Translations under genes and position numbers: made by a program
The notes under the pieces: model-generated
Databases searched by the model: none
Told to the model about the DNA's origin: nothing
Seen by the model: only the letters and a program-made list of their open reading frames with translations
Shown here: piece by piece, positions 1 to 17,835 of the stretch
Layout: the number at the start of each line of letters is the position of its first letter
Numbering within the stretch: position 1 is the stretch's first letter
Assembly (NCBI GenBank): GCA_050014195.1
Contig: JBEKDT010000013.1
Location: forward strand, 32,001-96,000
Source: Desulfomonilia bacterium
GTDB taxonomy: Bacteria > Desulfobacterota > Desulfomonilia > UBA1062
DNA: 64,000 bases
Direction: 5' to 3'

Positions 1-2946
1 AATGATGTCGTTGAGGTTCGATTCCAATATTTCGACGTATGCCCCCTGCTTTTCGTCAAGATTACCCAGTTTCAATTTATCCAGATAGGGGAGGGCAAGC
101 TCTTTTATGTTTGAGAGCACCTTCTCCTCAAGCTCATTCTTGTCCTGTTCGCCGCGCTTGAGAAGAACCTTCAGCGCGGTATTCGCTTCTTCGAGGTGAA
201 GCGATTCAAGTCTTAACTCTTCTTCTTTCTGCAAGAGGCTTTGCTCTGCCTGCTTGCGTTCTTCGATCTCCTTTTTAAGCCTGATATTTGCTTTAACCAG
301 CTCCTCTGTCCTTTCTTCCACCCGCTGCTCAAGGCTCTCATATGCCCTCTGGAGCTTCTGTTCGGTGATCTTGCGCTCTGTGATATCAACGAAAGAACAC
401 ATAAGGCAGATCGGTTTGCCGTCATCATTATTCACCATACTGGCAGTGATCTGCAAGGCGATGGGCTTGCCGTCCTTTCTGACTGCTATAATCTCGCCGA
501 ACCAATCCCCTTTCTCAAGGACGGAATGAAAAATCATATCCGCCTCATTCTTCGATTGGGCAAAACTCAAGGCTGATTTGCCAAGAACTTCTGATACGTC
601 ATTTCCACCCCAGAGACGCATGAAAGAATTGTTGACATAAGTGATGTTACCATTGAGATCGCCGATTGCGATCCCGTTGATAGAGGATGCAATGGCAAAG
701 TCCTTGATCTTGAGTTCCTCCTCCATGTGCTTGCGCTCTGTGATATCCACGAAAGAATCCATACCGTAGATGGGTTCACCTTTTTCATTGCGTACCATGT
801 TAACGGAGAGGTGGATGGTAATGGGTGAGCCGTCTTTCCGGTAACCTGATACCTCACCGGCCCAGCCTCCCTTCTCCCAGACAGTCTGATAGATCTCCAA
901 TGCCTCTTCTTGTGATTTGGCAAGGTTGAATGCAGATGTGCCGATTACCTCCGATGCATCATCGGCACCCCACATCTTAACTGCTGCATCGTTCACATAG
1001 ATGATATTACCTTCAACATCGGTAATACCGATGCCGACTATAGATGATGCAATAGCAAGATCCTTGATCCTGAGATCTTCCTCCATACGCTTGCGTTCGG
1101 TAACATCAACAAAGGAATCCATCAAACAGATCGGCTCGCCCTTTTCATTTCGCACAAGGCTCGCCGAGATGTGTACGGTTATGGGAGATCCGTCCTTCCT
1201 GTAGCCTGAAGCCTCGCCTGACCAGCTCCCTTTTTCAAAGATGGTCCTATAAATCTCGAGCGCCTCTTCCTCTGACTGAGCTAAGCTGAGCGCAGAGGTA
1301 CCGAGTACCTCTGCGGCATCTTCTGCCCCCCACATCTTAACTGCGGCGTTGTTCACATAAATAATGTTTCCTTCAAGATCACTGATCCCGATCCCATCGA
1401 TGGAAGATGCAATGGCAAAGTCTTTTATCCTGAATTCTTCCTCCATGCGTTTGCGTTCGGTAAGATCAACAAAGGAATCCATCATACAGATGGGCTCACC
1501 CTTTTCATTACGCACAAGGCTTGCGGTGAGATGTACTGTAATGGAGGACCCGTCCTTCCGGTACCCTGAAACCTCACCGGACCAACTTCCCTTTTCAAGG
1601 ACTGTCTGGTAGATCTCAATGGCCTCCTTTTCCGACTGGGCCAAGCTGAGTGCAGAGGTGCCGATCACCTCTGATATATTTTCTGCACCCCACATCTTGC
1701 GTGCAGCCTCATTGACATAGATGATGTTGCCTGCAAGGTCGCTGATGCCTATTCCATCGATAGAGGAAGCAATAGCGAAGTCTTTGACCTTGAGTTCTTC
1801 CTCCATTCGTTTGCGATCCGTTATGTCTACGAAGGAATCCATAGTGCAGATGGGTTCGCCTTTATCGTTGTGCACCAGGCTTGCGGTGAGGTGAACCGTG
1901 ATGGGGGAGCCATCTTTTCTTCTCCCAGTTATCTCACCTGACCATCCGCCCTTTTCCATGAATTCTTCAAACACCTTGAGTGCCTCTTCCTGGGAATCAG
2001 CGAATTCCAGGGCCGACATCCCGAGGACCTCGGAAGGATTATCCGCTCCCCACATCCTGAGGGCAGCCTCATTCATATAGATAATATTCCCCTCCAGATC
2101 ACCGAAGCCGATTCCATCGAGAGAGGAGGCTATAGCACTGTCTTTGATCCTCAGCTCGTTCTCAATACGCTTACGATCGGAGATATCGAGAAAGGAGCAC
2201 ATCAGGTTTATGGGTTCACCTTTTTCATTTCGCACGAGGCTTGCTGAAAGATGTACGGTAATCGGGGAACCGTCCATGATTTTACCGGTAATTTCTCCTG
2301 TCCAATAGCCTTGCTCATTGACAATATTCATGACCCGAATGGCCTCTTCCTCTGATTGAGCAAAAACGGTTATAGGTTTGCCCAGGATGTCAGCCGGGTT
2401 ATCTGTGCCCCACATCTTCAGCGCAGCTTTATTTACATAGGTGACATTTCCCTGGAGATCACCGATTGCTATTCCGTTGATGGATGATGCAATGGCGCTT
2501 TCTTTTATGCGGAGCTCTTCTTCGATATGCTTGCGGTCTGTTATATCAATAAAGGAGCACATCATACAGGTGGGCGTATCTGCCTCGTCGCGTACAAGGA
2601 ATGCAGACAGGAGAACGGTAATGGGCAAGCCATTCTTTCGTCTTCCAATGATCTCGCCTGACCACTCACCTTTTTCAAGAACGGTATGCATTATATTAAT
2701 CGCTTCCTGTTCTGACTGGGCAAAAACCGTAGCCGACTTGCCGATGATCTCGGATGGATCGTCAGTTCCCCACATCTTGAGGGCGGCATTATTCACATAA
2801 GTGACCACACCGTCGAGGCCGCCGATGGCGATACCATTTATGGAAGAAGCGATGGCATAGTCCTTGATGCGCGGGCCATCTTTATGAAATGATCTCTCGC
2901 TACCATTCATCAGTGAAATCTCTTTGGACGTTGATTCCTCAGCCAT
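1..2946 (-). CDS. Multi-PAS (7 x PAS/PAC) sensory transcriptional regulator, probably with a LuxR-type HTH beyond the window edge; 3' truncated
   Basis: Not in the ORF track. Read by hand: ATG at 2946 with GGAGG upstream; segments translated at the start, middle and end are all in one open frame. Seven 120-aa units of the type RIKDFAIASSIDGIGISDLEGNIIYVN..MWG..RKDGSPITVH..DVTERK. Ends LEEANTALKVLLKR..EEKVLSNIKELALPYL..ILESNLNDII, the linker I recognise from deltaproteobacterial PAS-LuxR proteins. Confidence 0.88.
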   Translation of the reverse strand, partial: MAEESTSKEISLMNGSERSFHKDGPRIKDYAIASSINGIAIGGLDGVVTYVNNAALKMWGTDDPSEIIGKSATVFAQSEQEAINIMHTVLEKGEWSGEIIGRRKNGLPITVLLSAFLVRDEADTPTCMMCSFIDITDRKHIEEELRIKESAIASSINGIAIGDLQGNVTYVNKAALKMWGTDNPADILGKPITVFAQSEEEAIRVMNIVNEQGYWTGEITGKIMDGSPITVHLSASLVRNEKGEPINLMCSFLDISDRKRIENELRIKDSAIASSLDGIGFGDLEGNIIYMNEAALRMWGADNPSEVLGMSALEFADSQEEALKVFEEFMEKGGWSGEITGRRKDGSPITVHLTASLVHNDKGEPICTMDSFVDITDRKRMEEELKVKDFAIASSIDGIGISDLAGNIIYVNEAARKMWGAENISEVIGTSALSLAQSEKEAIEIYQTVLEKGSWSGEVSGYRKDGSSITVHLTASLVRNEKGEPICMMDSFVDLTERKRMEEEFRIKDFAIASSIDGIGISDLEGNIIYVNNAAVKMWGAEDAAEVLGTSALSLAQSEEEALEIYRTIFEKGSWSGEASGYRKDGSPITVHISASLVRNEKGEPICLMDSFVDVTERKRMEEDLRIKDLAIASSIVGIGITDVEGNIIYVNDAAVKMWGADDASEVIGTSAFNLAKSQEEALEIYQTVWEKGGWAGEVSGYRKDGSPITIHLSVNMVRNEKGEPIYGMDSFVDITERKHMEEELKIKDFAIASSINGIAIGDLNGNITYVNNSFMRLWGGNDVSEVLGKSALSFAQSKNEADMIFHSVLEKGDWFGEIIAVRKDGKPIALQITASMVNNDDGKPICLMCSFVDITERKITEQKLQRAYESLEQRVEERTEELVKANIRLKKEIEERKQAEQSLLQKEEELRLESLHLEEANTALKVLLKRGEQDKNELEEKVLSNIKELALPYLDKLKLGNLDEKQGAYVEILESNLNDII
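361..2880 (-). repeat. Seven tandem 360-bp coding repeats (PAS domains)
   Basis: CACATC recurs at 971, 1331, 1691, 2051, 2411 and 2771. Units begin at 2880, 2520, 2160, 1800, 1440, 1080 and 720. Confidence 0.92.
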
Positions 2947-4208: not shown

Positions 4209-4487
4209 TCCCGAGACTCCAGAGTCTTGCACAGTCATTTCAATACCTTATATGGAATTATCGTTTATTATTATAATATACCACTAAAATTTATAGCAAA
4301 ATATGAGTATCTGTTAATGCATAGTTTTTTCATAGCAAAAAATATTCCTTAAATATGCATTTATAATTCATTGATATTGCGGTGATTATCTTATGATACT
4401 ATTACCTATTCATAACTGTAGGGAAAGTATATCCCTTATCAGGGAAAAACATTTCACACTCGGCACCCTGCCTAAAGAGGGTTTATG

Positions 4488-4515
4488 TTGACAAAAGACC
4501 AAGACTAAGGTCTTT
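4488..4515 (+). promoter_or_regulatory. Possible sigma70 -35 (TTGACA) abutting a palindromic operator AAAGACC-N8-GGTCTTT
   Basis: TTGACA at 4488-4493; perfect 7-bp inverted repeat at 4494-4500 and 4509-4515 in the divergent intergenic region. Confidence 0.35.
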
Positions 4516-4583
4516 AATGTCTTCAAATAAAGTTGTTCATATTATAAGAGAAAGAATTACTATGAAAACCTAACTGCGTAAAT

Positions 4584-5105
4584 ATGGAAATGAGTCTTCT
4601 TAAAAACTACACCATGCCGGGGCATACAGAAGGATCGTTTATGAAATTATATAAGTGGCCTGTTCGATTTATTATTATTGTGTTAGGATTATCGGTTTGT
4701 TTATATATTTTTTGGCCTAACGTAACGTTAGCTACAGGACAAAACCTCAACCCGAGAGAACCTTTTCATACATCATTTTTAATTCAAAACAAATCAATTT
4801 ATCCGATCTATGATGTTAAATGTGATTTTATATTTAATACTATTGAGGATGATAACCATCATGTATTCAGCAAATTGTCGGCCAATATCGATACGATGAA
4901 TTTAGAAAGTCTGGGCCGAACAGAAAGCAGGCCGATCATTTTCAAAGTGGCAATTAACGGGTTGGAAAAGGGCATACAAGGAGCTCATATTACTTTATTG
5001 TTATCATACAAATTACCAGTTATCGGCATAAAAATTTCAAAAATTATTCCTTTCACCGTTGAAAGAACCTCTACAAATACATACGAATGGTCCGAAAGCC
5101 ATTGA
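4584..5105 (+). CDS. Hypothetical membrane-anchored protein
   Basis: 173-aa ORF with one N-terminal hydrophobic helix and a beta-rich remainder; the true start may be later. Confidence 0.6.
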   Translation: MEMSLLKNYTMPGHTEGSFMKLYKWPVRFIIIVLGLSVCLYIFWPNVTLATGQNLNPREPFHTSFLIQNKSIYPIYDVKCDFIFNTIEDDNHHVFSKLSANIDTMNLESLGRTESRPIIFKVAINGLEKGIQGAHITLLLSYKLPVIGIKISKIIPFTVERTSTNTYEWSESH

Positions 5106-5216
5106 TGCTCATTACAAATTAGCTGTATTATAGATTTTGCTTGGTATGATGGTTTTGATTCTGTTAAACAATGGAGACGTTTCCTTGATAATATCTCTCA
5201 AAAAGGAGGGACTGAT

Positions 5217-6107
5217 ATGATAAAAGGTGGAAATAACAAAAGGTTCCTCGCTGTTTTTATTGTCTCTCTGCTCCTTATTGCAGGGTGCAGTTCAAGTAAT
5301 GGTACTGCGAACATTACCAACCCATATGAAACACAAGATGCTTCTGGTGTATGGCTGGGATATATAGGCAATGCTTTTGTTATAGGCATCATTACAACGG
5401 ATGATAATGAAAATTATTCGGGACGCTTTATGGGCCAATATAATGAAAGCAAAGTATTCACGCAATTTTTAACCCCGGATGGGTCTTATCTGACACAAAC
5501 ACCTGAGACGGCTATCTATACGGGAACTCTTGAAGAATGTGTATGGGACACTACTGGCCCTGATTACTACAATAAATTGCCACTTCAGACACTATCAATA
5601 TTAAGCAGTGTATCTGCGAAAAGTGTTTTTGGAGGGCCGCTTTTCAGTTCAGCAGTATATAATGAACAACCTTATATTCCAGAGCAAATACAGACAGGAG
5701 AATTGATATTATATTATAACACCACCTATGATCTATCGCCGAATGTCAACAATCTTTCTGGGCAGTGGGAAATAACGAATATATTAACGAAAGGTAATAC
5801 CCTAATCTTAACAATAACACCCGATACGGCAGGTACTAATGGGACAACGCATATTTCGGGTAGTGACACGAAGGGTAATCAATTCGACGGGACAATTACT
5901 ATTCATGTTACCCCGGTGCCTCATAACATATATGATGTGAGCCTCAAGATGAATAACAGTATTGACCTCACCGGCCTTGTCACGTATGTACTGGAAGAAA
6001 CATCGGCAGGAGAAGGAATATCACTCCCACAAAAGACACTTGTTATCGGTGCAACAGACAAGGATAAGAACTATTCCTTAAGCGGACTTGCAAATAAAAA
6101 GGAGTAA
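5217..6107 (+). CDS. Lipoprotein of unknown function
   Basis: AGGAGG RBS, lipobox LIAG-C followed by SSS, Thr/Gly-rich beta-type sequence. Confidence 0.8.
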   Translation: MIKGGNNKRFLAVFIVSLLLIAGCSSSNGTANITNPYETQDASGVWLGYIGNAFVIGIITTDDNENYSGRFMGQYNESKVFTQFLTPDGSYLTQTPETAIYTGTLEECVWDTTGPDYYNKLPLQTLSILSSVSAKSVFGGPLFSSAVYNEQPYIPEQIQTGELILYYNTTYDLSPNVNNLSGQWEITNILTKGNTLILTITPDTAGTNGTTHISGSDTKGNQFDGTITIHVTPVPHNIYDVSLKMNNSIDLTGLVTYVLEETSAGEGISLPQKTLVIGATDKDKNYSLSGLANKKE

Positions 6108-6150
6108 AATCAATCGGTGAGCAGAAGGTATCATCATAATGTAAAATATA

Positions 6151-6326
6151 TAGGGTATCTCTAAAAATTGATGATCTCGAAAAAGAATGAGCGATCTCAT
6201 CCTCAGTGTCATTCCCGCGGAAGCTTCGAATCCAGTTATTTTGAGTAGTTCTGGACCTCCGCTTTCGCGGGGGTGACAATAAAAATAAATTCGTATGAAA
6301 TCCCCTGCATTTTTAGAGGTACCTTA
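6151..6326. mobile_element. MITE/REP-like palindromic element, copy 1
   Basis: Outer inverted repeats TAGGGTATCTCTAAAAAT / ATTTTTAGAGGTACCTTA (16/18, TA ends) enclose core 6207-6278 TGTCATTCCCGCGGAAGCTTCGAATCCAG..CTGGACCTCCGCTTTCGCGGGGGTGACA. Confidence 0.7.
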
Positions 6327-6472
6327 TAGTGATTCAGTATGGTTGAAAGCCCGTGGTATCCGTGGAATGATGACCGGTTATAAGTAAAATATTTTTTGGA
6401 ACCCAGGTCACGTTAGTTGAAAAACTTTTCTCTGAAGCATGGCAATTTCTTTCCACTTTTCTTCGGCAGGAA

Positions 6473-6485
6473 CAATGCATTGATT
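6473..6485 (-). promoter_or_regulatory. IHF binding site
   Basis: Minus strand AATCAATGCATTG is a perfect WATCAA-N4-TTR, about 30 bp upstream of the sigma54 motif. Confidence 0.55.
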
Positions 6486-6515
6486 ATAACTAATTGAAAT
6501 ATAGATATTATTATA

Positions 6516-6531
6516 TGGCAAGCTTATTGCT
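6516..6531 (+). promoter_or_regulatory. Sigma54 (RpoN) -24/-12 promoter
   Basis: TGGCAAGCTTATTGCT: GG-N10-GC with TGGCA and TTGCT, directly upstream of the first operon gene. Confidence 0.72.
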
Positions 6532-6545
6532 ATTATCAAAGGCGT

Positions 6546-7268
6546 ATGACTATCAGACACCTTTTGGGCCTGTGGGTTTATAAGATGAATTGGAATAAGT
6601 GGATTAGAGGTTTCTTGACACTTATTCTTTCCATGGTTGTGATGATCATGTTATCCGCGCCCCTTTATGCTGATGTGAACGTCCAGGATCTGGAAATGGG
6701 GACCCACGATTATATCATTGACAAACAGCAGTCATTTAATTGTTCCATGGTCCAGATGAGTGATAATGAGCTTTCCGACGTGACTGCCGCCGGTTTTTCC
6801 AGTTTCACGTGGGATAATAGTATCCCAGATATTAGTGTCGCCACGGCATATCTCAATATCCAGACGAGCACGTTCACTGAGATCCAATCCCTTAAGATGG
6901 GTTATCATAATAGTGGCTGGGATGAAGACTGGACGAATGTTTCGCTTGGTTCATCAACGCAGGATCTTGTTTGCAAAGGGTTCACTATTCAGGCTAGTTT
7001 CTCAAACCTCACCGATCCGGCAACGAGAACACTCAACAGCCTCACAGTTGGCACCCCTTCGATGACCGGCCCCATCAGTGCCTACTTCAATTCGTTTACC
7101 GGGCATATAGGGAACGGTACAGATACAGGAGGGGTCGACTATACCCGGACAGACCTCTCAAGCTCCGGCACCGTCGTGAGGACGATCTATAGTAACAGTG
7201 ATAAGTTCTATATACAGCTTTCAAGCACAGGTTGGTTGTTTTACTGGAGAAATGGTACGCTCAATTGA
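6546..7268 (+). CDS. Secreted FilA/DUF6160-related minor subunit with C39-type leader
   Basis: Signal peptide ending APLYA; internal leader MVQMSDNELSDVTAA-G; Ser/Thr-rich beta sequence. Start may be 6585. Confidence 0.65.
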   Translation: MTIRHLLGLWVYKMNWNKWIRGFLTLILSMVVMIMLSAPLYADVNVQDLEMGTHDYIIDKQQSFNCSMVQMSDNELSDVTAAGFSSFTWDNSIPDISVATAYLNIQTSTFTEIQSLKMGYHNSGWDEDWTNVSLGSSTQDLVCKGFTIQASFSNLTDPATRTLNSLTVGTPSMTGPISAYFNSFTGHIGNGTDTGGVDYTRTDLSSSGTVVRTIYSNSDKFYIQLSSTGWLFYWRNGTLN

Positions 7269-7526
7269 GAAAGGCTTATAAAGAAGTTATGAAGACACAC
7301 AGGGCACTTACACTTAAAGTATGTAAATGCGATTCAATCGGGAGAGGGAGGTCTTTGCAGTGATTCTCCCAGCCCTGTGCATTTTATAAGGAAGGAAAAA
7401 TCGAAAAGGGGGTGATGCTTGGGTAGTAGGACTAAGTAGGACTAACCAATACAGACCAACAGGAAAAAAGGAAATGCATTAACAATGACGCAACTAAGAA
7501 AAAATAAAAAATGGAGGCAAAACGTT

Positions 7527-8756
7527 ATGAAGAGAGTATTGACTATTCTGGCTATTCTTCTCCTGCCCCTTTCCGTATGGGCAATGACCCCTGTCACTGA
7601 TTCCGACCTTTCCAATGTGACAGGCCAGGCTGGCGTGAGTATCAACCAGGATGTTATGATGAACATCCATATGGACGTCATGGCATGGGGTGATACTGAT
7701 GGCCTCGGTTTAGCAGGCATCGGCACCACTTCTGCACTTAAAACCGGTCTCAACCCATGGACCGACGTTACCACGGGCGGTTACATTGGTATCAAAGGCT
7801 TTGACATGGCTCTGAGGATAAAGGCACGTACCACTGATACATACGGTGCAGCCACTGGTTCAGACACGAACGCTGTTTATGGTGTTTATAACCCAACCAG
7901 TTATCCCGGCCTCAAGCCTCTGACCATCGATGTTGCGACTACGACTGCCGCCCAGGATCCCAACCTCTATGGCGCCGGCGTGACCTTTGTTCGCATCGGT
8001 CTTGGTTCCATGGAAATCGACGTGAGCGCAATGTCGTTTGATATCGGCCTCAGCTCACATGCTGGCGTTACTGCCACCAATGCCCCGACTCTTAATCAGA
8101 TTCTCGGCACCGTATCAATGGGTAACATCGGCATCTTCATCAGCCCCTACAGCTATGTTGACATCTACAATGGCGCCAGAGGAACAGGTTCTGGTGTAAC
8201 CTTCGGCATCCACTTCCAGATCGATCAGTTCAACATGGACTATATCTCATGGGGTGACAAGGATGGCTTTACCAACGTCGACACAAGCGATAATGCTGGT
8301 ATGCTACCAGGCTACACCAATACTAATCCGTTCCCCTGGGCCGCAGCAACTAAGGGCGGTTATATAGGGCTTGGCACGCTTAGGGTTGGTGGACCGATCA
8401 CGATCACAGGCACCGTGAATATTGACGTGGGTACTGTGACAACCGGTTACTATGCCTCGGCTGCCGCTATTCTGACCGGTGGTACAATAACAAATGTGCC
8501 GATGGTCCACATTACATTCGGGAATATGTCTGCTGCTGCTGGCGGACCCGCAGCGGGCCCAGCTTATGCTAACGGTGTAGGCCTTGAGGTGAATGTCCCC
8601 TCGATTATGGCAAACATAGCCCTTAGCGACACAGCAAATTTACTGAATAATTTTACTGGTTCCGTGCCGTCTGCAAATGTGTTGGGTGACATCTACATCA
8701 GCAACTTTAATTTCAAGATTATTAAAGGCAGCTGGGTAGACATCTTTGCCCACTAG
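7527..8756 (+). CDS. DUF6160/FilA-like secreted protein, probable major fibre subunit
   Basis: GGAGG RBS at 7513, start 7527 (ORF track 7485). Signal peptide LSVWA, then MTPVTDSDLSNVTGQAGVSI. Gly/Thr/Ala-rich, Cys-free, internal two-fold repeat, ends WVDIFAH. Confidence 0.8.
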   Translation: MKRVLTILAILLLPLSVWAMTPVTDSDLSNVTGQAGVSINQDVMMNIHMDVMAWGDTDGLGLAGIGTTSALKTGLNPWTDVTTGGYIGIKGFDMALRIKARTTDTYGAATGSDTNAVYGVYNPTSYPGLKPLTIDVATTTAAQDPNLYGAGVTFVRIGLGSMEIDVSAMSFDIGLSSHAGVTATNAPTLNQILGTVSMGNIGIFISPYSYVDIYNGARGTGSGVTFGIHFQIDQFNMDYISWGDKDGFTNVDTSDNAGMLPGYTNTNPFPWAAATKGGYIGLGTLRVGGPITITGTVNIDVGTVTTGYYASAAAILTGGTITNVPMVHITFGNMSAAAGGPAAGPAYANGVGLEVNVPSIMANIALSDTANLLNNFTGSVPSANVLGDIYISNFNFKIIKGSWVDIFAH

Positions 8757-8768
8757 TTGATTACTTGC

Positions 8769-8811
8769 GAGGAAACAGGGGGGCTTTGTCTCCCCTGTTC
8801 CTCCTTTTATT
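8769..8811 (+). terminator. Intrinsic terminator/attenuator after the major subunit gene
   Basis: GAGGAAACAGGGG..CCCCTGTTCCTC stem followed by CTTTTATT. Confidence 0.7.
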
Positions 8812-8859
8812 GATATGGAATGAAATGAGGATAAAGCGGAGGGATAATAAAAGGACATT

Positions 8860-9738
8860 ATGAAAAAAAACATTCTCCTATTTCTCGCAATCCTGATGCT
8901 GCCGGTTACCGCAGGTGCCATGACGCCTATCAGCGATCACGAGCTTTCGAATGTGACAGGCCAGGCCGGGGTGAGTATCAGCATGGATGTTATGATGAAC
9001 AGCACCTTTGGTTCATTCAAGTTTTCAGACACCGACAACGATCCTGTAAACTGGATCGAGTTCAACAACATAACAATCACAAGCCGATGGGAAACACTTC
9101 AGGGCAGCCCCCCAATTACCTTAGATATAGCTACCGGGAACAACATAGATAATACCGAGAGGACATGGGTTAACCTGGTTTTATCTCAGTATTCGCAGCC
9201 TGAAACATGGGATATCGGTAATTTCGTTTTCGTCAACCAGGACATCGGCAATCTCCAACTTGAAAATATGATGATGGCAGAGCCTGCTGTTTTGCGTTTC
9301 TCCGCGCATCCCGGCGTTGGAACATCAGGACTGGAATTTGAGTATTTGAGCAGTTGGATGGCCCAGGATATTTCCTATAATTATAATACATCTGGGGGCA
9401 ATCTCCAACTATCCGGCATACATTTTGCGGCATCAGCGAGCAGCCCCACCGATGACCCGAGCAATCCTTCTACCTGGCAGTTCACCGGATCGTTCCGCGT
9501 GGGAGATCTAATGGGAGGTAACATCCCTGTTGACAGCACCAACGCCTCTGTTCCTAACCCTGCAACCTTTGATGTAGGCACCACTTCAGACGGGTATACA
9601 TCCGTGTATCTTAATCTTCCGCTCAAGGGTACGATCAGGGTTGCGGATGTACAGTTCGGAGGTCAAGATCTCGGTCCTATCGCCATTGACGGTATTGTTG
9701 CGCACCATCTTTTTGTAAAGATCGGTGGAGCTAACTGA
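8860..9738 (+). CDS. DUF6160/FilA-like secreted protein, second paralogue
   Basis: Signal peptide VTAGA, then MTPISDHELSNVTGQAGVSI, nearly identical to the previous gene's N-terminus. Confidence 0.78.
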   Translation: MKKNILLFLAILMLPVTAGAMTPISDHELSNVTGQAGVSISMDVMMNSTFGSFKFSDTDNDPVNWIEFNNITITSRWETLQGSPPITLDIATGNNIDNTERTWVNLVLSQYSQPETWDIGNFVFVNQDIGNLQLENMMMAEPAVLRFSAHPGVGTSGLEFEYLSSWMAQDISYNYNTSGGNLQLSGIHFAASASSPTDDPSNPSTWQFTGSFRVGDLMGGNIPVDSTNASVPNPATFDVGTTSDGYTSVYLNLPLKGTIRVADVQFGGQDLGPIAIDGIVAHHLFVKIGGAN

Positions 9739-9758
9739 CCATTCATTAGTCAGACCTG

Positions 9759-10523
9759 ATGCCTATTGTTATCGGCTTTTTTATCATATTGACTTTCCTT
9801 GGAACCATGTATCCCCTCAGAGACATTCCCAAGGGAGACATGCAGATTTTTCCCCATATGGCCGGGATAGAGAACCTCCCGCTTAGATATAATGTACAAC
9901 CATTTACTGAAGAATTCAATTTCAAGAATGTTGTGAAACAGCAATATGATTATAGCTGTGGCTCCGCTGCCCTTGCCACGCTTCTCAACTATTACCTTGG
10001 GGAGCAATTCAGCGAGCAGCAGGTAATTCAGGGCCTCATGCACTATGGCGATGCCGAGAAAATCCAGGAGCGAAGGGCGTTCTCACTGCTCGATATGAAA
10101 CGTTTTTGTGAGGTGCTCGGGTATAAAGCTGAAGGGTATAAAGCGGATCTCGATGATCTCAAGGCCTTACATAAGTCTGCAATTGTCCCCATAGAATTAA
10201 CAGGATACAAACATTTCGTCGTATTCCGCGGCTTCTATAAAGACCACATTTTTTTTGCAGATCCATACAGAGGCAATTCAAGCTTTACTATTGATAAATT
10301 TCTTGAGATATGGAGCCAGAATGTCATCTTCGTTGTATCGAGTGAGACCGTGCAGACGAATGCCCTTCGGTTGAAGAACGAAGACTTGCGAATCATCGAC
10401 TATGACTTCACAAAAGATGCAATAGCACAAATACCCATTCCCCAAACCATCACGGAGCAGCAGCGATTGATCGAATCTCTGGGCGGGAAAGTATTTAAGA
10501 CCCAAAATGGGAATGTATATTGA
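9759..10523 (+). CDS. Stand-alone C39 family cysteine peptidase (FapD/FilB-like)
   Basis: QQYDYSCGSAALATLL (catalytic Cys), YKHFVV (His), FADP (Asp), FSLLDMKR; N-terminal hydrophobic segment; no ABC domain. Confidence 0.9.
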   Translation: MPIVIGFFIILTFLGTMYPLRDIPKGDMQIFPHMAGIENLPLRYNVQPFTEEFNFKNVVKQQYDYSCGSAALATLLNYYLGEQFSEQQVIQGLMHYGDAEKIQERRAFSLLDMKRFCEVLGYKAEGYKADLDDLKALHKSAIVPIELTGYKHFVVFRGFYKDHIFFADPYRGNSSFTIDKFLEIWSQNVIFVVSSETVQTNALRLKNEDLRIIDYDFTKDAIAQIPIPQTITEQQRLIESLGGKVFKTQNGNVY

Positions 10524-10611
10524 CGACACTTGATATTGTAAGATTAACGCTTTGTATTCGCAATTAAATAATGTATTAAATAAAATATTCATACTATGCG
10601 AGGGTCTATCA

Positions 10612-11679
10612 GTGAGACAAGCTTTGTTAGTAGGACTGATGGTCATGTTCATAATGGGTTCAAGCAGGGTTTTATATGCAGATGATCAGCCAAAGAATGA
10701 TAACTCCCAACAGGAGCTGCTTGATCGGATAGATACGCTGGAAAAGGAGCTGCAAAAGCTCGAGGAGGAAGGCAAGGCAAGAAAGAGCCTGGAAGTCACC
10801 GAAGAGGAAAAGGGTGAGAAAGAAAAAGAGGTGCTGGAGGCAGTAAGCAGGGAATATACCCTTTCGGCCAAAGGCACCTTGTCAATAGATTATGGTCTCA
10901 ATTATTCCTATTCCCCGAGTGAAACTATTTATACTACGGCACAGGCGCTCCAGTTGCAACGTGCTGTAAATCATACTATTACAAATTCCATTTACACCTC
11001 ATACAGTTTTCTGGACAACCTCACGACAAGCCTTAGCCTGCCCATTGTTTACCGTTATGACAAGGTGGGGACAGACCAAAGCCTTAGTGAAACAGATATC
11101 GGAGATATATCATTTGGGTTTGCCTTCCAACTCCCCCATCAGCTTAAAATACCTGGAGGTATTACTAGCACCTACAGCTTTGGCGCCGCATTTCCCACAG
11201 GCCGGAGCCCATACAAAATCAACCCGAATACCGAGCTCTCTACAGGTAGCGGAGAGTACTCGTATTCATTAGGGGGCAGCTTCAGCAAACAGATTGATCC
11301 TGTAGTTGTATTCTGGAGCCTTGGAATAGGATACCCATTAGGTCTCAAGAATCTCAATTACAAGATATCGGACACGTACACATTGGTTAAAGTAGACCCC
11401 CCACTTTCCTATAGTCTCAGCATGGGTATGGGGTATGCTCTATCATATGCCAACTCCATCAATATGTCATTCTCTTACGCATATGCACAATCAACAAAAC
11501 TGACCTATAAGGAATTAACATCACCTGTTAAAACGGGAGACAGTGTTTCTGCTTCATTTGGAGTGGGTATGGGCTTTATGGTTACACCCAAGACGACTGT
11601 ATCGGTCTCGCTTGCATACAGTCTGGTAAGTGCAGGGTTCTCGTTGTCCACCAGAATACCTTTTGATTTTGTGTTGTGA
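10612..11679 (+). CDS. FapF/FilC-like outer-membrane beta-barrel secretion channel
   Basis: Probable GTG start at 10612 (ORF track 10552). Signal peptide, acidic coiled coil (ELLDRIDTLEKELQKLEEE), barrel with GDISFG, FPTGRSPY, TGSG and KQIDPVV motifs. Confidence 0.78.
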   Translation: MRQALLVGLMVMFIMGSSRVLYADDQPKNDNSQQELLDRIDTLEKELQKLEEEGKARKSLEVTEEEKGEKEKEVLEAVSREYTLSAKGTLSIDYGLNYSYSPSETIYTTAQALQLQRAVNHTITNSIYTSYSFLDNLTTSLSLPIVYRYDKVGTDQSLSETDIGDISFGFAFQLPHQLKIPGGITSTYSFGAAFPTGRSPYKINPNTELSTGSGEYSYSLGGSFSKQIDPVVVFWSLGIGYPLGLKNLNYKISDTYTLVKVDPPLSYSLSMGMGYALSYANSINMSFSYAYAQSTKLTYKELTSPVKTGDSVSASFGVGMGFMVTPKTTVSVSLAYSLVSAGFSLSTRIPFDFVL

Positions 11680-11692
11680 GGAGGTTAGTCAG

Positions 11693-13390
11693 ATGAAGAG
11701 ATTCCGCTTTACCTTCCTTTTCATCCTGATTTTAATGACATATTTACCTTCCACACTGTTTGCAGCCCTGTACGAACAGCTTGCCATCTCGGCCCTTGGC
11801 GGCTCCATGGGCAATGCTGTGACCGCATATCCGGAAGAAGCCGGTGCTTTGTCTATACATTACAACCCGGCAGGACTTGCGGATATCCCGGGTACGCGTT
11901 TTGATAACGGTCTTGGGATAGTCGAAACTTATCGACAGGTTACCTTTCATCAGGCCATCGACCCCATTACAGGCAAGCCCTGGGCACCGTTCGGTCAGAA
12001 TAACATTCCTGGGTTCAATAATGGGGTAGATCCGCTTAACGGTGTGAAAGCCAAGCAGTCAAGCGGATTTATGATTGTACCTTATATTGATTTTGATTTG
12101 CCATATCTTATAACACCCTCTATGGGCATCTCATATAAGCCGCCTGAGCCGCAATACTCCCGATGGACCTTTGGGTTTGGTCAGTTTGCTCCCTTTGGGG
12201 CAGGGCTCAAGAACTCAGCAAACAGTCCGTTGAGCTTCTTGGGCCAGGAGGCCTGGTTTGTGAGGATGAGCTTCATAACACCTGCTGTTGCCTATAAGCT
12301 TTCTGATACTGTCTCAATAGGGGCATCGGTGGGGGTTGGTCCGTCAATGTTCATGCTCGAGACAAATTTAAGGACCCCCAACACCATGGTCGCACTGACC
12401 GGTGCCCTTGGAAATGCGACGAAAGGTCTCGAGATCCCGGTGGTATCCGAGCTCACATTACCACCGCCCTGGTTCAACGGCGGAATGACACCATATACAC
12501 CCCAGGGTCATCTCATGCTGCAAGTGGAAGACTATATCACCACCTCTTACAACTTAGGTATTCTCTGGAAACCCTACGATTGGTTCTCCTTTGGGGCATG
12601 TTACCAGAGCGAGTCCGAAGCCAATATGACAGGAACTTTCAAGTTATCATACGGTTACCAATTCCGCAGGACGGTTGACTGGTTTGGCAGATCACCTCTG
12701 ACGATTGTTACAGCAGCCATTTTTGACTTGCCGACCCAGTCGGTACCTTACCAGGCAGGTAACGCCTCCATGGACCTGACTTGGCCGGCCCGCCTCCAGA
12801 TGGGCATAATGCTCAATCCCATTAAACAGGTGAAATTTACTTGTGATGCAAACTGGACAGACTGGGCCGTGCAGCCGGATTGGAAGTTCGTTTTTGATCA
12901 AAAGATCCAACTCTACCGTTTCGCTCGGATGCTTGGGTATCGGTATTCAACTGATACCCAGGTAATAACGCAAGACTTTAAGGACACCTGGAACTTGAGT
13001 TATGGCTGTGAGCTCAAGCCCGATGCAAAGCACACACTGCGTTTCGGGTATGACGCACGGCCGACGTCAGTCAGGAACAATCTCTTCGGGCCTTTGCCCT
13101 TCTCGGATATCACGATCTACTCTGCAGGCCTCGGGATCGTGGTAGATGACAAGCCCAAGCCCAAACCGCGGAACTTCAATGAACGCTTGCAACAGCTCAA
13201 TAATCCAAATGAAATAAACATTACGGTGAGTTACATAAAACTTGCTGATAAGACCGTCTTGAGCAACACCAGTAAAAACCTCAACTCCACGACTTTCACC
13301 GACATTGTTTATAATCCCTATTCAGGGCTCGATTGGACTCAGAAGATGCACCTATGGTGGTTTTCAATAGATCAGGTTTTCAAGTGGTAG
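11693..13390 (+). CDS. FadL-family (FilD/AupA-like) outer-membrane transporter
   Basis: GAGGAGG RBS, start 11693. SMGNAVTA..SIHYNPAGL hatch motif, PAVAYKLSDTVSIGASVG, C-terminal FKW. Confidence 0.85.
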   Translation: MKRFRFTFLFILILMTYLPSTLFAALYEQLAISALGGSMGNAVTAYPEEAGALSIHYNPAGLADIPGTRFDNGLGIVETYRQVTFHQAIDPITGKPWAPFGQNNIPGFNNGVDPLNGVKAKQSSGFMIVPYIDFDLPYLITPSMGISYKPPEPQYSRWTFGFGQFAPFGAGLKNSANSPLSFLGQEAWFVRMSFITPAVAYKLSDTVSIGASVGVGPSMFMLETNLRTPNTMVALTGALGNATKGLEIPVVSELTLPPPWFNGGMTPYTPQGHLMLQVEDYITTSYNLGILWKPYDWFSFGACYQSESEANMTGTFKLSYGYQFRRTVDWFGRSPLTIVTAAIFDLPTQSVPYQAGNASMDLTWPARLQMGIMLNPIKQVKFTCDANWTDWAVQPDWKFVFDQKIQLYRFARMLGYRYSTDTQVITQDFKDTWNLSYGCELKPDAKHTLRFGYDARPTSVRNNLFGPLPFSDITIYSAGLGIVVDDKPKPKPRNFNERLQQLNNPNEINITVSYIKLADKTVLSNTSKNLNSTTFTDIVYNPYSGLDWTQKMHLWWFSIDQVFKW

Positions 13391-13458
13391 ATTGAATTTA
13401 GATATAAGGTTCATCACCGTAAAGCATACTCGGATCATTGAGGAGCACACAGAGGGAT

Positions 13459-13668
13459 TTCTCACCACGAAGGACACGAAGCATCAATTTGATGAACTCT
13501 CGACCCGGGTCATTGGCTGTGCCATCGAGGTACATCATATTCTAAATGAAGTTGGCAGGTGTTAAGACCGGCCTGCTGATCAACTTCAATGTGAAAGTGC
13601 TTCGGACGGGTGTTAAGCGTTTTGTCCTATGATCTTCTTCGTGCTCTTCGTGTCCTTCGTGGTGAGAA
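13459..13668 (+). pseudogene. Internally deleted GxxExxY-family gene bounded by perfect 23-bp inverted repeats
   Basis: N-terminal fragment FDELSTRVIGCAIEVHHIL (from 13488) joined out of frame to C-terminal fragment MKLAGVKTGLLINFNVKVLRTGVKRFVL* (13546-13632). Ends are TTCTCACCACGAAGGACACGAAG and its exact reverse complement at 13646-13668. Confidence 0.8.
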
Positions 13669-13795
13669 CAATAGGTTGGGAAAGGATGCAAACCATATTT
13701 CATGAGCTTGCTTCACAATAGCAAAACCTGTATAGGATAAATTGATCGTTATATCTGGTCATACTGAACTATCTGAGAAAAGGAGAAGGTCCAGC

Positions 13796-15304
13796 ATGAA
13801 AATTTCAATACACTATCTGGTTATAATCTGTGTATTTCTCTTTATGGTAAACGGGCCGGGCTTTGCGGCCGATAACACGATAATCAAAGAAGATGTATAT
13901 GTTGTTATAAAACCGATTCCGGGGTTTGGAATATATGCCAATTCAATGGTCCCTAGTCCCGATTCCAATCATTTGGCATGCGTTGCAAAGAAAGGGGATA
14001 AATATTGCACTATCTACGATGGAAAACCACTTACACTTTATGATTCGATTGCGAAAGGTACACCTACCTTCAGTCTTGATTCTGAACACATGTTATATAA
14101 AGCAAAAAAAAGGAATAAATGGGTAGTTAATCTAGATTCTAAAGAAGGAAAAACATACGCTGAGATCGGGATACCGTTTTTTACCCCCGATTGTAAACGG
14201 GTATATTATGTGGTTGAGGATTTGGGAAAACAATTTGTAGTCTTGGATGGGAAAGAGGGTGCCAAATATGATGGCATACCTCAAGAAAGGAACCTCACAT
14301 TCAGTCCGGATTCCAAACACATTGCTTATGCAGCATTTAAAAATAAGAAAATGATCGTTGTGTCGGACGGGAAGGAAGGGACGAGTTATGACCAGGTGTC
14401 TTCACCCCGCTTTAGTCCTGATTCAAAGGTATTAGTCTATCCTGCAGAGAAGAGTAAGAAGTGGCTTTTTGTAAAGAATGGAGTGGAGGATGGGAAGCAG
14501 TATGATACGATCGGCACATACACTTTTAGCCTTGATTCATCACATTTTGCATACTCTGCTAAAAAAGGTGACAAAAAATTCATGGTGCTTGACGGGAAAG
14601 AAGGGATTCCGTTCGATGATGTTGCAATGCCCATATTCAGTCCCGACTCTAAACAGCTGGCCTATCTCGGGATAGAAAATAAAAAATGGTTCATGGTATT
14701 CAACAATGAAAAAGGAAAGCCATATGATGAAATAAAAGACCTTAGCTTCAGCAGGGACTCGCTGCACCACAGCCTGACAGTAAGAAAAGGAAACAAGTGG
14801 TCCATTATTTCTGATGGCAAAGTAGGACCGAATTATGATGATATCGCTTTGCCGCTATATACCACTGATTCCAAACATCTGATTTATCTCACGAGTAACA
14901 ATAAAAAGGGGAGGATTGTTTTTGATGGGAAAGAAAGTCAACCGTATGATGTAGTATCACTCGTCGTATTCAGCAAAGACTCTCAACATATGATGTACAT
15001 GGCTAAAAAAGATGAGAAATGGTTTATCGTAAAGGATGGAAAAGAATCGGCCCACTATGATGGGGTTGCACTCCCTACATTCAGTCCTGATTCAAAGCAC
15101 TATGCATTTATCTGTTTGAAAAAAGGTGTATGGTCTATAGTATGTGACGGAGTGGAGGGGAAAGCGGAATTTGCCGGCTTCCTTAAAGACTCAAGTATCG
15201 AATTTGATTCGCCAACGCATATTCATATTCTTGCAATGCAGGTGGCGTCAGGAGGCACAACCCCTGAACTTAAATTTGTCAAGCTTACAGTAGATATAAA
15301 ATAG
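13796..15304 (+). CDS. Secreted WD40/PD40-like (TolB-type) beta-propeller repeat protein
   Basis: Start 13796 (ORF track 13742), signal peptide, about 11-12 repeats of DGKEGxxYDxIxxPxFSPDSKHxAY. Confidence 0.82.
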   Translation: MKISIHYLVIICVFLFMVNGPGFAADNTIIKEDVYVVIKPIPGFGIYANSMVPSPDSNHLACVAKKGDKYCTIYDGKPLTLYDSIAKGTPTFSLDSEHMLYKAKKRNKWVVNLDSKEGKTYAEIGIPFFTPDCKRVYYVVEDLGKQFVVLDGKEGAKYDGIPQERNLTFSPDSKHIAYAAFKNKKMIVVSDGKEGTSYDQVSSPRFSPDSKVLVYPAEKSKKWLFVKNGVEDGKQYDTIGTYTFSLDSSHFAYSAKKGDKKFMVLDGKEGIPFDDVAMPIFSPDSKQLAYLGIENKKWFMVFNNEKGKPYDEIKDLSFSRDSLHHSLTVRKGNKWSIISDGKVGPNYDDIALPLYTTDSKHLIYLTSNNKKGRIVFDGKESQPYDVVSLVVFSKDSQHMMYMAKKDEKWFIVKDGKESAHYDGVALPTFSPDSKHYAFICLKKGVWSIVCDGVEGKAEFAGFLKDSSIEFDSPTHIHILAMQVASGGTTPELKFVKLTVDIK

Positions 15305-15343
15305 AAACAGCTCCGATCTGGTCGCATAATTTTACATTACTCT

Positions 15344-15467
15344 AGAGGCAATTGCAAAACTTAAAAAAGGTGTCACCCCCGCGAAAGCGGGGGTCCAGAA
15401 GTTTTTGAAAAGACTGGATTCGAAGCTTCCGCGGGAATGACGATCTTGGTCTTTTGCAATCGGCTCT
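15344..15467. mobile_element. MITE/REP-like palindromic element, copy 2 (inverted relative to copy 1)
   Basis: Core 15371-15441 is the reverse complement of 6208-6278 apart from the loop and one stem base. Outer inverted repeat AGAGGCAATTGCAAAA / TTTTGCAATCGGCTCT. Confidence 0.72.
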
Positions 15468-15531
15468 TTATATTATTCAATATTATATAAAACGGAGCAA
15501 TACTATATTTTATTATATACCAACTATAAAG

Positions 15532-17835
15532 ATGCGCAGTTATCGTTTTAGTACCCTATTATTTCTTATTTTTCTTGCTATTGTAGTTCTTGCTACAATT
15601 GCTCTTAGATATGCAGAACCTATAAATGATGGAGATATCTGGTTTCACCTCGCATATGGCAGATATTTTATTGAACATCATACCTTGACGGTAGATCATT
15701 CCATTTTCAGCTGGACCCCTGCTAAAAGCCATTGGATATATTGTGCATGGATACCCCAGACCATTTTTTATCTGCTCTATGAAACATGCGGATTCTCTAG
15801 TCTATATGCATTGCGGTATCTGGTCATTATCACGTTTCTATTTTTTGTATTTTTAATAGCAGGAAAGAATCGGGCTAAATTTTTACCATACATCTTGCTC
15901 ATATGCCTTATAGGCTTACTGATGGCTCCTGCAGGTCTGCGCATCAAGGCTGATCTCTTTTCATTTTTATTCATGACCACCCTTGTATTCCTGTGGTTCA
16001 GATTCAAGATCAACCCTGATAAAAGCTGGCCTGTTCTTTATTTGTTGCCAGTGCTGTTCTTGTTCTGGGTGAATTCCCATCCTGGTTTCATCTTCGGGGC
16101 AATATTTCTCAGTCTTGTCTTTACAGGAGAGATTATTAATCGACTTGCCGGATCATCAGAAAAAATCCATCAGAAGATCTTGATCCATTTATTCATCGCC
16201 TGTGTTTTAAGCATGGTTTCAGTCTTTATAACCCCTTATGGATGGGAATATCCGATTTCTCTGGTAAATGAGCTTATTTTCAATTCAAAAGCTTTTTCCA
16301 GGGATATCCGGTCAATCGCTGAATATCAGTCTATCTTTTTACCCCAAGCATCTCATTTTCACTTCATCGATTACCTCACGGCTTCATCGGTCGTGCTTGC
16401 AATGCTTTTACTTGCCCAACTGAAAAGACATCGCATCGATTGGGGGGTTTTGCTTGTAACCGCCTTCTTCATGATCCTTTATATGAAATACATGAGATTA
16501 ACCTATTACTGGGCAATTATCTTTGTATTTTTAGCAAGTTACTTAGCAAGACAGGTTTACCAGAATGATCCAGGACCTTTAATAAAAAAACCGCTGAAAA
16601 TTGCAATCCATGGCATTACCTTTATTCTTTTGCTATTTTTTGCCGTGCGAGCGCAATATGAAACTTTCTGCGCCCCAACTATTGGATTTAACCCTAATTA
16701 TATAAGCCCAGAATCAGAAGCAGGCTATATACGCCAGAACTTCCCACATATGCTCATGGGGAATGATTACTATTGTGGCTCTTATCTTCTTTGGTCACTA
16801 TGGCCCACAAAAAAAGTATTCATTGATGCACGATATTTTCCCTATAGTGAATGGTATGATGAAGCACATAAATTCGAAGGTAGTAAAGATAAAGCCACAA
16901 TAGAATCTCTATTAAAAAAGTATAAATGCGATCTATGGTGCCTCTCCTATTATACGCCGGTACTCCAATATTTCATTACATCGCCGGATTGGAGGCTTGT
17001 TTACTATGGGCCTTCAGCCTGCATTTTCCTGTCAAATAGAGTAGATATATCTCAACAAACCCGTTCCGTTGCTGAATCTATATCTAAAGTCGGCATATAT
17101 CAGGCCTATCTTATCACCATGTTTGCATTACGAGTAGGTGATCTTGAAGTTGCGAATAATATCGTGAAGGCAATGAAGCCAAATCCGATTTGTCCCTTGC
17201 AGGCTAGTTGGGCAATTAATGCCAAGCTCAATGTCGGCGATAACCTTCTCAACCAAGGGAAATATTATGATGCTATCGGAGTTTACTCTGATGCTATCAT
17301 GCAAGTTCAGCAGCATCCTTTACTCAGTCATCTTTGGGGCCATGACTTTTATACTGATCTTGTCATGATTCACCAGAATCTTGGCAATTCACTTATGAAG
17401 GTAAATCAAATTGGTGAGGCAATCAAGCAGTACAATCAGGCCTTGAAAATAAAACCCGACCTTGCCACTGCCCAAAGTAATCTTGCTCTTGCAATGGCTC
17501 AGATGACAAAGATTGATGAATCCATATCAAAGCTCGAATACATCTTAAAAAACAATCCCTATCCTCTGAAGATACTTAACTCTTTGGCTGTATATTATTC
17601 AATGAAGGGACAATACGATAGAAGTATAGATTATTTAATGAAAGAGCTAAACATAACCCCCGAGAACCCTGGGGTCTATTATAATTTAGCATGTATATAC
17701 TCCAGACAGAATAGATTGGAGGAGTCAAAAATATTTCTGGATAAGGCTATCAAGAAAGGTTTCAATGATTGGGATATGCTGAAAAAAGATCATGATCTGG
17801 ACAACTTGAGGAATACAACAAACTATAAAAACTAA
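15532..17835 (+). CDS. Multi-TM GT-C-like membrane protein with C-terminal TPRs
   Basis: Likely start 15532 (ORF track 15454). DGDIWFHLAYGRY first loop, many TM helices, WVNSHPGF, VFIDARYFPY, TPRs and YYNLAC..KKGF..DLDNLR cap. Paralogue of 44910..47090. Confidence 0.72.
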   Translation: MRSYRFSTLLFLIFLAIVVLATIALRYAEPINDGDIWFHLAYGRYFIEHHTLTVDHSIFSWTPAKSHWIYCAWIPQTIFYLLYETCGFSSLYALRYLVIITFLFFVFLIAGKNRAKFLPYILLICLIGLLMAPAGLRIKADLFSFLFMTTLVFLWFRFKINPDKSWPVLYLLPVLFLFWVNSHPGFIFGAIFLSLVFTGEIINRLAGSSEKIHQKILIHLFIACVLSMVSVFITPYGWEYPISLVNELIFNSKAFSRDIRSIAEYQSIFLPQASHFHFIDYLTASSVVLAMLLLAQLKRHRIDWGVLLVTAFFMILYMKYMRLTYYWAIIFVFLASYLARQVYQNDPGPLIKKPLKIAIHGITFILLLFFAVRAQYETFCAPTIGFNPNYISPESEAGYIRQNFPHMLMGNDYYCGSYLLWSLWPTKKVFIDARYFPYSEWYDEAHKFEGSKDKATIESLLKKYKCDLWCLSYYTPVLQYFITSPDWRLVYYGPSACIFLSNRVDISQQTRSVAESISKVGIYQAYLITMFALRVGDLEVANNIVKAMKPNPICPLQASWAINAKLNVGDNLLNQGKYYDAIGVYSDAIMQVQQHPLLSHLWGHDFYTDLVMIHQNLGNSLMKVNQIGEAIKQYNQALKIKPDLATAQSNLALAMAQMTKIDESISKLEYILKNNPYPLKILNSLAVYYSMKGQYDRSIDYLMKELNITPENPGVYYNLACIYSRQNRLEESKIFLDKAIKKGFNDWDMLKKDHDLDNLRNTTNYKN

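Follow-up and report, generated by a model that had tools for sequence, protein, structure and literature searches.

A candidate Fil-type surface pilus locus with leader-bearing subunits, a C39 peptidase and two outer-membrane barrels in a Desulfobacterota genome

A 64,000-nucleotide stretch from the genome of a Desulfomonilia bacterium (phylum Desulfobacterota, lineage UBA1062; assembly GCA_050014195.1, contig JBEKDT010000013.1, positions 32,001 to 96,000; this whole stretch is called the window, and its own numbering is used below) contains a locus that probably builds a surface pilus of the Fil type. Its six core genes encode three secreted subunits (A, B and C), a stand-alone C39 peptidase (D), a FapF-like outer-membrane barrel (E) and a barrel of the FadL family (F). 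Judged by sequence comparison, the locus is a distant relative of the Fil 'putative pilus' genes of Acinetobacter and not of the Fap amyloid operon, and it represents a distant, multi-subunit Desulfobacterota variant of the Fil kind.

The six open reading frames (ORFs) are all co-oriented on the + strand (6546-13390) with short gaps between them. The subunits A, B and C carry signal peptides, and glycine, serine, threonine and asparagine together make up 35-37% of their residues; cysteine is absent from B and C and occurs twice in A. An earlier note on this DNA, made from the letters alone, had described an operon of this layout, with three secreted Gly/Thr/Ser-rich subunits, a stand-alone C39 peptidase with intact catalytic residues, a barrel bearing a PTG motif and a FadL-type barrel, and had read it as related to Fil and Fap with subunits other than FapC. 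The six genes lie where it had placed them, and the family assignments that follow bear out each of these points. No usher, periplasmic chaperone, or type IV pilin or ATPase domain was matched by Pfam or NCBIfam in the 11 ORFs of 3132-17835.

The top-ranked NCBIfam models, which for Fil are of NCBI's 'exception' type, are FilA for B (E value 8.5e-9) and C (8.1e-5), FilB for D (1.1e-62), FilC for E (1.2e-44) and FilD for F (1.4e-72). Fap models rank beneath them: D matches FapD at 4.6e-37 (127.4 bits against a cut-off of 330) and E matches FapF at 3.4e-13 (49.2 bits against 700), while A, B and C match no Fap subunit (FapB/FapC-type) model in NCBIfam or Pfam. Pfam places DUF6160 (PF19657; gathering cut-off 27 bits) on B (44.7 bits, 1.7e-11) and C (65.4 bits, 5.7e-18), Peptidase_C39 (cut-off 22) on D at 69.3 bits, and Toluene_X/FadL (cut-off 29.7) on residues 51-507 of F at 116.4 bits (1.5e-33); A has no DUF6160 or other Pfam match. 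The host genome holds five DUF6160 matches in all.

The same gene set recurs widely. A pattern scan over one genome per species yielded at least 601 stretches; 593 of these encode a peptidase relative, and the analysis went on with the best 80 loci (31 from Desulfobacterota and 49 from Gammaproteobacteria). Homologues of D, E and F are adjacent and in the same order in 72 of these 80 loci, in both lineages. Of the eight loci without this adjacency, four end less than 260 bases from the peptidase gene, and the other four (L017, L022, L024 and L032) share a common synteny in which purine-synthesis and housekeeping genes come after the peptidase gene. The Desulfobacterota loci come from Smithella, Syntrophaceae, Desulfobacteraceae, Desulfoluna and Geobacteraceae, the gammaproteobacterial ones from Pseudomonas, Marinobacter, Oleiphilaceae, Bermanella and Kistimonas, and each subunit-bearing locus encodes one to six subunit genes with a common leader. 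Thus the conserved co-occurrence that the earlier note had proposed to look for in gene neighbourhoods is found across two phyla. The lineage, which the note had called a different one, is not unusual for such a system: the peptidase has 6067 homologues at E ≤ 1e-10 among 6326 candidates, and with relatives of it spread over at least 593 species genomes the window belongs to a large family. Of 301 genomes sampled from Desulfobacterota, 27 encode the FilC-like barrel (20 of 200 genera), as does one of the two other genomes of the window's genus, so that the system is patchy and accessory in the phylum; the host itself has a single peptidase gene and a single FilC-like gene.

Comparison of the subunits links them to a fibre of known structure. 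Two modules are visible in alignments of B and in profile alignments of C, and hhalign relates both the B-type profile (98.3%, E 1.2e-14) and the C-type profile (98.8%, E 8.5e-17) to the FilA-type profile over whole modules; the C-terminus of B reads F-A-H, matching the F/W-A-H motif of the family. FilA-type sequences in turn match the Protein Data Bank (PDB) entry 9XFV, 'pilus-like-alpha', a helical filament from cave water determined by electron cryo-microscopy (cryo-EM) with a rise of 11.70 Å and assigned the sequence of UniProt A0A257CJ09 (PMC12956863, PNAS 2026). In the accessible text of that report it serves only as a handedness control, and no biogenesis genes are named (PMC12956863). 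One Pseudomonas FilA-type ORF directly upstream of a C39 gene matches 9XFV at E 5.7e-8, and a profile of 16 such Pseudomonas ORFs does so at E 5.2e-15. In the profile alignment the residue that follows G-Q is matched to chain residue 1, and W-G-H at the end of the profile to W-A-H at the end of the chain. The numbering of the 173-residue chain, 38..210, leaves 37 precursor residues absent, about 15 more than a signal peptide, which fits removal of a leader. The fibre reading of the earlier note gains support here, since by way of the FilA type a solved environmental pilus appears to belong to the same subunit family.

The AlphaFold2 (AF2) model of C (predicted local distance difference test, pLDDT, 82.5) is a curved antiparallel beta-meander in which the leader is disordered and the first strand begins at residue 37; a Foldseek search of this model against the PDB returned no match at E ≤ 0.001. 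Subunit A forms a third class. Phmmer found 12 homologues at E < 1e-8 that adjoin C39 genes in other loci, and its nearest Atlas cluster (0.92) carries DUF6160 on 11% of its members.

Leaders cut by C39 peptidases, of the double-glycine type, have hydrophobic residues at positions -15, -12, -7 and -4 and a small residue at -2. The subunits of the window and their relatives keep this spacing. A jackhmmer search with residues 1-55 of C recovered 100 ORFs from 60 of the 80 loci, and in 57 of the 80 the peptidase gene has at least one leader-bearing ORF on its own strand in the 6 kb ahead of it, in most cases immediately upstream. Across the 100 aligned ORFs a signal peptide ending A-x-A is followed by a stretch of 15-16 residues with L or M at -15 (76/100), M, L, I or V at -12 (100/100), L or M at -7 (100/100), V or I at -4 (89/100), T at -3 (77/100), G or A at -2 (100/100) and Q at -1 (81/99); the predicted mature chain begins with A or D (73/97) and has G at +2 (91/96). 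The leader of C runs from M21 to Q35, giving a predicted mature start of A-G-V-S-I. In A the motif lies 28 residues past the signal peptide and ends V-T-A-A ahead of G-F-S-S-F, whereas in most A-type homologues it comes directly behind the signal peptide.

All of 14 aligned homologues share the catalytic residues Gln61, Cys67, His152 and Asp168 of the peptidase D, and these align with those of LahT150 (6MPZ) and PCAT1 (4RY2) at E 5.9e-10 to 9.2e-10. Since it sits behind a hydrophobic N-terminus, D should face the periplasm. Docking of D residues 45-254 with C residues 19-62, each supplied with an alignment, gave an interaction prediction score from aligned errors (ipSAE) of 0.75, 0.73 and 0.73 (median 0.73), compared with 0.00 in all three controls. 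The complex passed the mark set for this score, which 116 of 157 solved complexes and 2 of 215 mismatched pairs also attain; at least 56% of contacts agreed between runs, and the partner pLDDT was at least 53. The interface on D comprises Cys67-Gly68 and residues 150-153, and that on C residues 20-24, 26 and 29-36, that is, positions -16 to +1 and nothing further. The docking model supports binding of the C leader to the active site of D in the expected register.

The two barrels are recognised by fold or family. In Pfam, E has sub-threshold barrel matches only; against the PDB it aligns with FapF (E 1.2e-7), including the PTG motif. Its AF2 model (pLDDT 84.1) has long helices at residues 54-79 and 84-100 followed by a barrel, and matches the FapF crystal structures with a Foldseek E value of 2.5e-21, a template modelling (TM) score of 0.77-0.84 by target length and a root-mean-square deviation (rmsd) of 2.7-4.0 Å. 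The F gene always follows the FilC-like one, and its pairing with a FapF-like barrel and pilin-like genes suggests that F may take part in building the fibre and not in uptake.

Several findings weigh against a Fil-type pilus. All Fil scores are far under the NCBIfam cut-offs (in bits, FilA 35.2 against 220, FilB 211.9 against 475, FilC 153.2 against 630 and FilD 244.8 against 970), and B/C, D, E and F are therefore distant Fil relatives and not orthologues. The direct links between the window subunits and 9XFV are weak: the C-type profile has it as its single PDB hit (E 0.0055, chain 9xfv_A, 'bacteria pilus (like)'), neither B alone nor a B-type profile of 13 rows matches any PDB entry at E ≤ 1, and the C model superposes on 9XFV with a VIA-align Z of 4.9 (rmsd 2.7 Å over 88 residues, 19% identity), at rank 26 and beneath matches to Omp85, TamA and autotransporter barrels at Z 7.7-8.1 (Z 7.7 at rmsd 6.9 Å). 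The 37 residues absent from 9XFV could be disordered rather than removed. Furthermore, 20 of the 80 loci yielded no leader-bearing ORF, and we know of no C39 peptidase with a specificity for Q at -1. The docking result may reflect likeness to known complexes, because solved C39-leader structures exist (6MPZ and the PCAT1 entries), and the docking output does not list the substrate residue at Cys67. Finally, there is no RNA among the 24 public runs found to contain 6400-15400.

The barrel matches of the C model, together with the second-ranked Atlas cluster of A ('Porin family protein', 0.91), would be explained if the exported proteins formed no filaments and were instead adhesins, a surface layer, integral beta-barrels or other proteins of the surface or outer membrane, with the C39 step serving for maturation only. 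Yet those matches fall within the background of the tool, for which a typical best Z is 7-8. The homology of B and C to the FilA-type family, which includes a solved helical pilus, extends over whole modules, and the presence of one to six subunit genes per locus with one type of leader is as found in pilin sets. Of the alternatives this one survives best, and we still consider it unlikely.

A second alternative concerns the leader, which might be a retained targeting or assembly signal while the C39 peptidase acts on a part of the machinery, such as the linker in the FapF-like barrel. The accessible text of Rouse et al. 2017 raises FapF cleavage as a possibility and leaves the target of FapD open (PMC5557850), and both the unusual Q at -1 and the possible disorder of the 9XFV N-terminus are compatible with this arrangement. 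Against it, the full double-glycine spacing is kept, down to G or A at -2 in every one of the 100 ORFs; docking places the leader at the Cys67/His152 region, with controls at zero; the first modelled strand of C starts straight after the predicted cut; and the 9XFV chain begins at +1. Retention of the leader thus appears quite unlikely.

In each of the five Pseudomonas genomes checked, a true FapF gene (735-767 bits) and a separate FilC-like gene (61-74 bits) sit at different places, and Fap and Fil are therefore distinct systems. That the window encodes a Fap-like functional amyloid, whose subunits become cross-beta once exported, is very improbable: D and E do match the FapD and FapF models and E has the FapF fold, but both scores lie far under the Fap cut-offs and beneath the Fil scores, no subunit matches a Fap subunit and C is modelled as a confident globular beta protein, the solved relative 9XFV is a helical pilus built of folded subunits, Fil-like and Fap loci coexist separately, and Fap operons, to our knowledge, contain no FadL-like gene. 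Export of a bacteriocin or toxin was rejected, as the locus has no ABC transporter and the substrates are beta proteins of 200-420 residues with Sec signals.

For a Fil-type pilus we propose the following pathway. Judging from their signal peptides, A, B, C and the leader-bearing paralogues encoded elsewhere in the genome would cross the inner membrane by Sec. The propeptide of 15-16 residues, from its conserved positions, would act as a double-glycine-type leader with Q at -1. Periplasmic D would bind this leader and cut after G-Q to give a mature start of A/D-G-V/I-S-I, as the docking model and the solved relative suggest. By analogy with Fap biology, the Cys-free subunits would pass unfolded through the FapF-like barrel E and, on the strength of homology, build up a 9XFV-like helical fibre once outside the cell. 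Tentatively, B, with the hairpin after its gene, is taken as the major subunit, with A and C in minor roles. F is an obligate partner of E and might, through its lateral opening, anchor the fibre or nucleate it, and the PD40 propeller encoded downstream might hold subunits in the periplasm; both roles are guesses, the former of low confidence.

This proposal can be widened to the whole family. Fil-type loci may form a separate, widespread Gram-negative pilus pathway, defined by Sec export, a C39 cut after G-Q of a minimal double-glycine-type leader, and paired FapF-like and FadL-like barrels, with 9XFV as its unrecognised fibre and FapE as the substrate of FapD. The window would then hold a form elaborated in Desulfobacterota, in which the pilins are tandem-module proteins, the subunits fall into three classes, a PD40 propeller is added and further subunit genes are scattered in the genome. 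We hold this compound reading tentatively, judging it slightly more apt to fail than to hold.

The features of the locus are collected in Table 1. The extent proposed by the earlier note, 6516..13390, covers the six core genes correctly and ends too soon, since a seventh gene, for a secreted propeller (PD40 at 1.1e-10), co-occurs with the system in relatives. Its homologues (E < 1e-20) are found in 14 of the 31 Desulfobacterota loci and in none of the 49 gammaproteobacterial ones, and in L015, L020 and L021 the gene lies between a C-type subunit gene and the peptidase gene; by this distribution of sequence matches, the propeller is an accessory part of the Desulfobacterota form of the locus.

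Table 1. Features of the candidate Fil-type locus (positions in the window)
Feature	Position	Strand	Description
Subunit A	6546-7268	+	240 aa; alternative start 6585; third subunit class; without Pfam or NCBIfam family
Subunit B	7485-8756	+	423 aa; likely start 7527; DUF6160; signal peptide, leader, two tandem pilin-like modules
G+C-rich hairpin followed by T run	8774-8799	+	directly 3' of the B stop; top terminator-like site
Subunit C	8860-9738	+	292 aa; DUF6160; signal peptide, 15-residue leader ending G-Q, two pilin-like modules
D, stand-alone C39 peptidase	9759-10523	+	254 aa; FilB-like; N-terminal hydrophobic segment; presumed periplasmic
E, FilC/FapF-like outer-membrane barrel	10552-11679	+	375 aa; N-terminal helices; exact start uncertain
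F, FilD-like FadL/OmpP1/TodX-family barrel	11630-13390	+	likely start 11693; Toluene_X
Secreted PD40-type beta-propeller	13742-15304	+	likely start 13796; signal peptide; seventh gene

Other neighbours were set aside. The ORF at 15454-17835 (+) combines an N-terminal multi-pass membrane region with TPR repeats towards its C-terminus, and TPR-repeat proteins of ~370-900 aa are encoded near L008, L009, L014, L017, L022, L025, L028, L032 and L034; the ORF was left out of the system because its likeness to the neighbours of other loci is confined to the TPR part. Conservation of the ORFs at 3132-6107, which lie upstream, is limited to the two closest loci, L008 and L009, and amounts to plain synteny. 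In three of the four gammaproteobacterial loci scanned (both Pseudomonas and one Kistimonas) the ORF after the FadL-like gene encodes ~380-410 aa and has a weak MalM-like match (E ~5e-5); the corresponding ORFs of the Marinobacter and Oleiphilaceae loci gave no match; a MalT/LuxR-type regulator lies upstream in L031, the one Pseudomonas locus scanned there. Between 76 and 100% of the sampled words of 6400-15400 are present in 24 public DNA runs from 23 studies, labelled as peat or wetland metagenomes, 12 of which were flagged as possible sources.

Two sets of loci depart from the common layout. L017, L022, L024 and L032, from syntrophic-type metagenome-assembled genomes, have four to six leader-bearing subunit genes and the peptidase with no adjacent barrel genes, and carry purine-synthesis, RmuC and histidine-kinase genes 3' of the peptidase gene. 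Ten loci from Marinobacter, Oleiphilaceae and Bermanella (L054, L058, L062, L072, L073, L077, L080, L081, L084 and L085) have the peptidase, FilC-like and FilD-like genes and room upstream, with no leader-bearing ORF by the leader model; their subunit genes may lie elsewhere or be too divergent.

Subunit genes are scattered in the host genome as well. Three further genes with full leaders (C12:141476-141892, C2:119918-120538 and C22:29237-29815, prefixes denoting host contigs) stand among unrelated housekeeping genes, far from any peptidase or barrel gene, and the C2 copy has an in-frame TGA inside its DUF6160 match. Two paralogues of ~205 aa, C17:99428-100048 (+) and C13:131094-131711 (+), keep the family signal peptide and the start of the leader, replace T-G-Q with S/N-N-P and end in S-W-V-D-I-R/K-T-H like B; they may be uncleavable variants. 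In the metagenome proteins P0136-P0141 (489-504 aa) a B-type and a C-type module are fused behind one leader, the second module starting G-S-G-V/I-S, and the two module types seem to be shuffled as units.

The intergenic fold 3' of B has a z of -2.13. In relatives, 7 of the 8 regions tested after B-type genes form hairpins of -20 to -33 kcal/mol, compared with -9 to -14 after A-type genes, these being raw energies without a shuffled control. The strong hairpins after B-type genes hint that B is the abundant subunit, and the hairpin of the window may set the stoichiometry of the subunits, either as an attenuator or by stabilising the mRNA.

The leader also offers a parallel within Fap. The Fap homologue of D, FapD, resides in the periplasm, and secretion requires its catalytic Cys, according to the accessible text of PMC5557850, which also describes FapE as the only Fap protein without N-terminal peptides (Rouse 2017). 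No FapD substrate is named in the accessible parts of the Fap literature up to October 2026. FapE is encoded between FapD and FapF in Pseudomonas fap operons (L095:2244-3038 (-), L094:6832-7671 (+), and also L088-L090), and right behind its signal peptide it carries a canonical double-glycine-type leader, L-S/K-D-Q-E-L-x-Q-L-R-G followed by R or K. In the two fap loci scanned with the Fil leader model, FapE ranked top among all ORFs of L095, weakly (E 0.0056), and reached only E 0.19 in L094; by pattern, the leader motif is present in three of five fap loci. Pfam does not call FapE as DUF6160. On these sequence features, FapE may be the substrate of FapD.

The Fil kind is known by name, from the NCBIfam FilA-D models and the Acinetobacter fil locus. 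Literature searches, with subscription papers outside their scope, returned nothing on the leader, the peptidase substrate or a tie to 9XFV, in keeping with the view of the earlier note that the assembly mechanism was undescribed. Gram-negative pilus assembly pathways form a short and well-studied list, and the proposed route, if true, would add one built on a C39 peptidase that cuts leaders and on two barrels of the outer membrane unrelated to each other. It would also predict precisely the mature N-terminus of the subunits, tie the orphan cryo-EM fibre 9XFV to candidate biogenesis genes and supply in FapE a concrete candidate for the FapD substrate. By analogy with the general roles of pili, the locus probably serves attachment or aggregation in its host.

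Among known systems the closest is the Acinetobacter fil locus (A1S_0690-0695), which shares with the window the order subunit, C39 peptidase, FapF-like barrel and FadL-like barrel, as well as a DUF6160 N-terminus on its subunits. The window differs in having three subunit classes, two of them tandem two-module proteins, where fil has one FilA, and in its PD40 propeller and its Desulfobacterota host. No match named FilE or FilF was found in NCBIfam among the 11 ORFs scanned, it not being established whether the library includes such models. The Acinetobacter genes have been termed 'putative type III pili', their proteins are raised in pellicle cells, and the locus is known mainly through expression and vaccine studies (PMC4256060; PMC5376624; PMC7273844); FilA is cited as a Fil pilus subunit of Acinetobacter sp. 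Tol 5 in the accessible text of PMC11784438. 9XFV probably belongs to the same subunit superfamily as the window subunits, through the FilA-type profile and the hhalign links of B and C, and its subunit is a single module where B and C have two.

Pseudomonas Fap depends on a periplasmic C39 peptidase for export, to which D is likened, and on FapF, a plugged 12-stranded barrel with periplasmic helices on which E superposes. On the other hand, the window subunits are unrelated to FapB and FapC, a second, FadL-like barrel is present and FapA is absent. The C39 domains of bacteriocin ABC exporters (LahT150 and PCAT1) have the catalytic Gln, Cys, His and Asp in common with D, and their substrates have the same hydrophobic positions and small residue at -2 as the window leaders; in the window, however, the peptidase stands alone, its presumed substrates additionally have a Sec signal peptide, Q takes the place of G, A or S at -1, and the locus contains no ABC transporter. 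By sequence F is a clear member of the FadL/OmpP1/TodX channels for hydrophobic compounds, from which it differs in being paired, in 72 of the 80 loci, with a FapF-like barrel and pilin-like genes.

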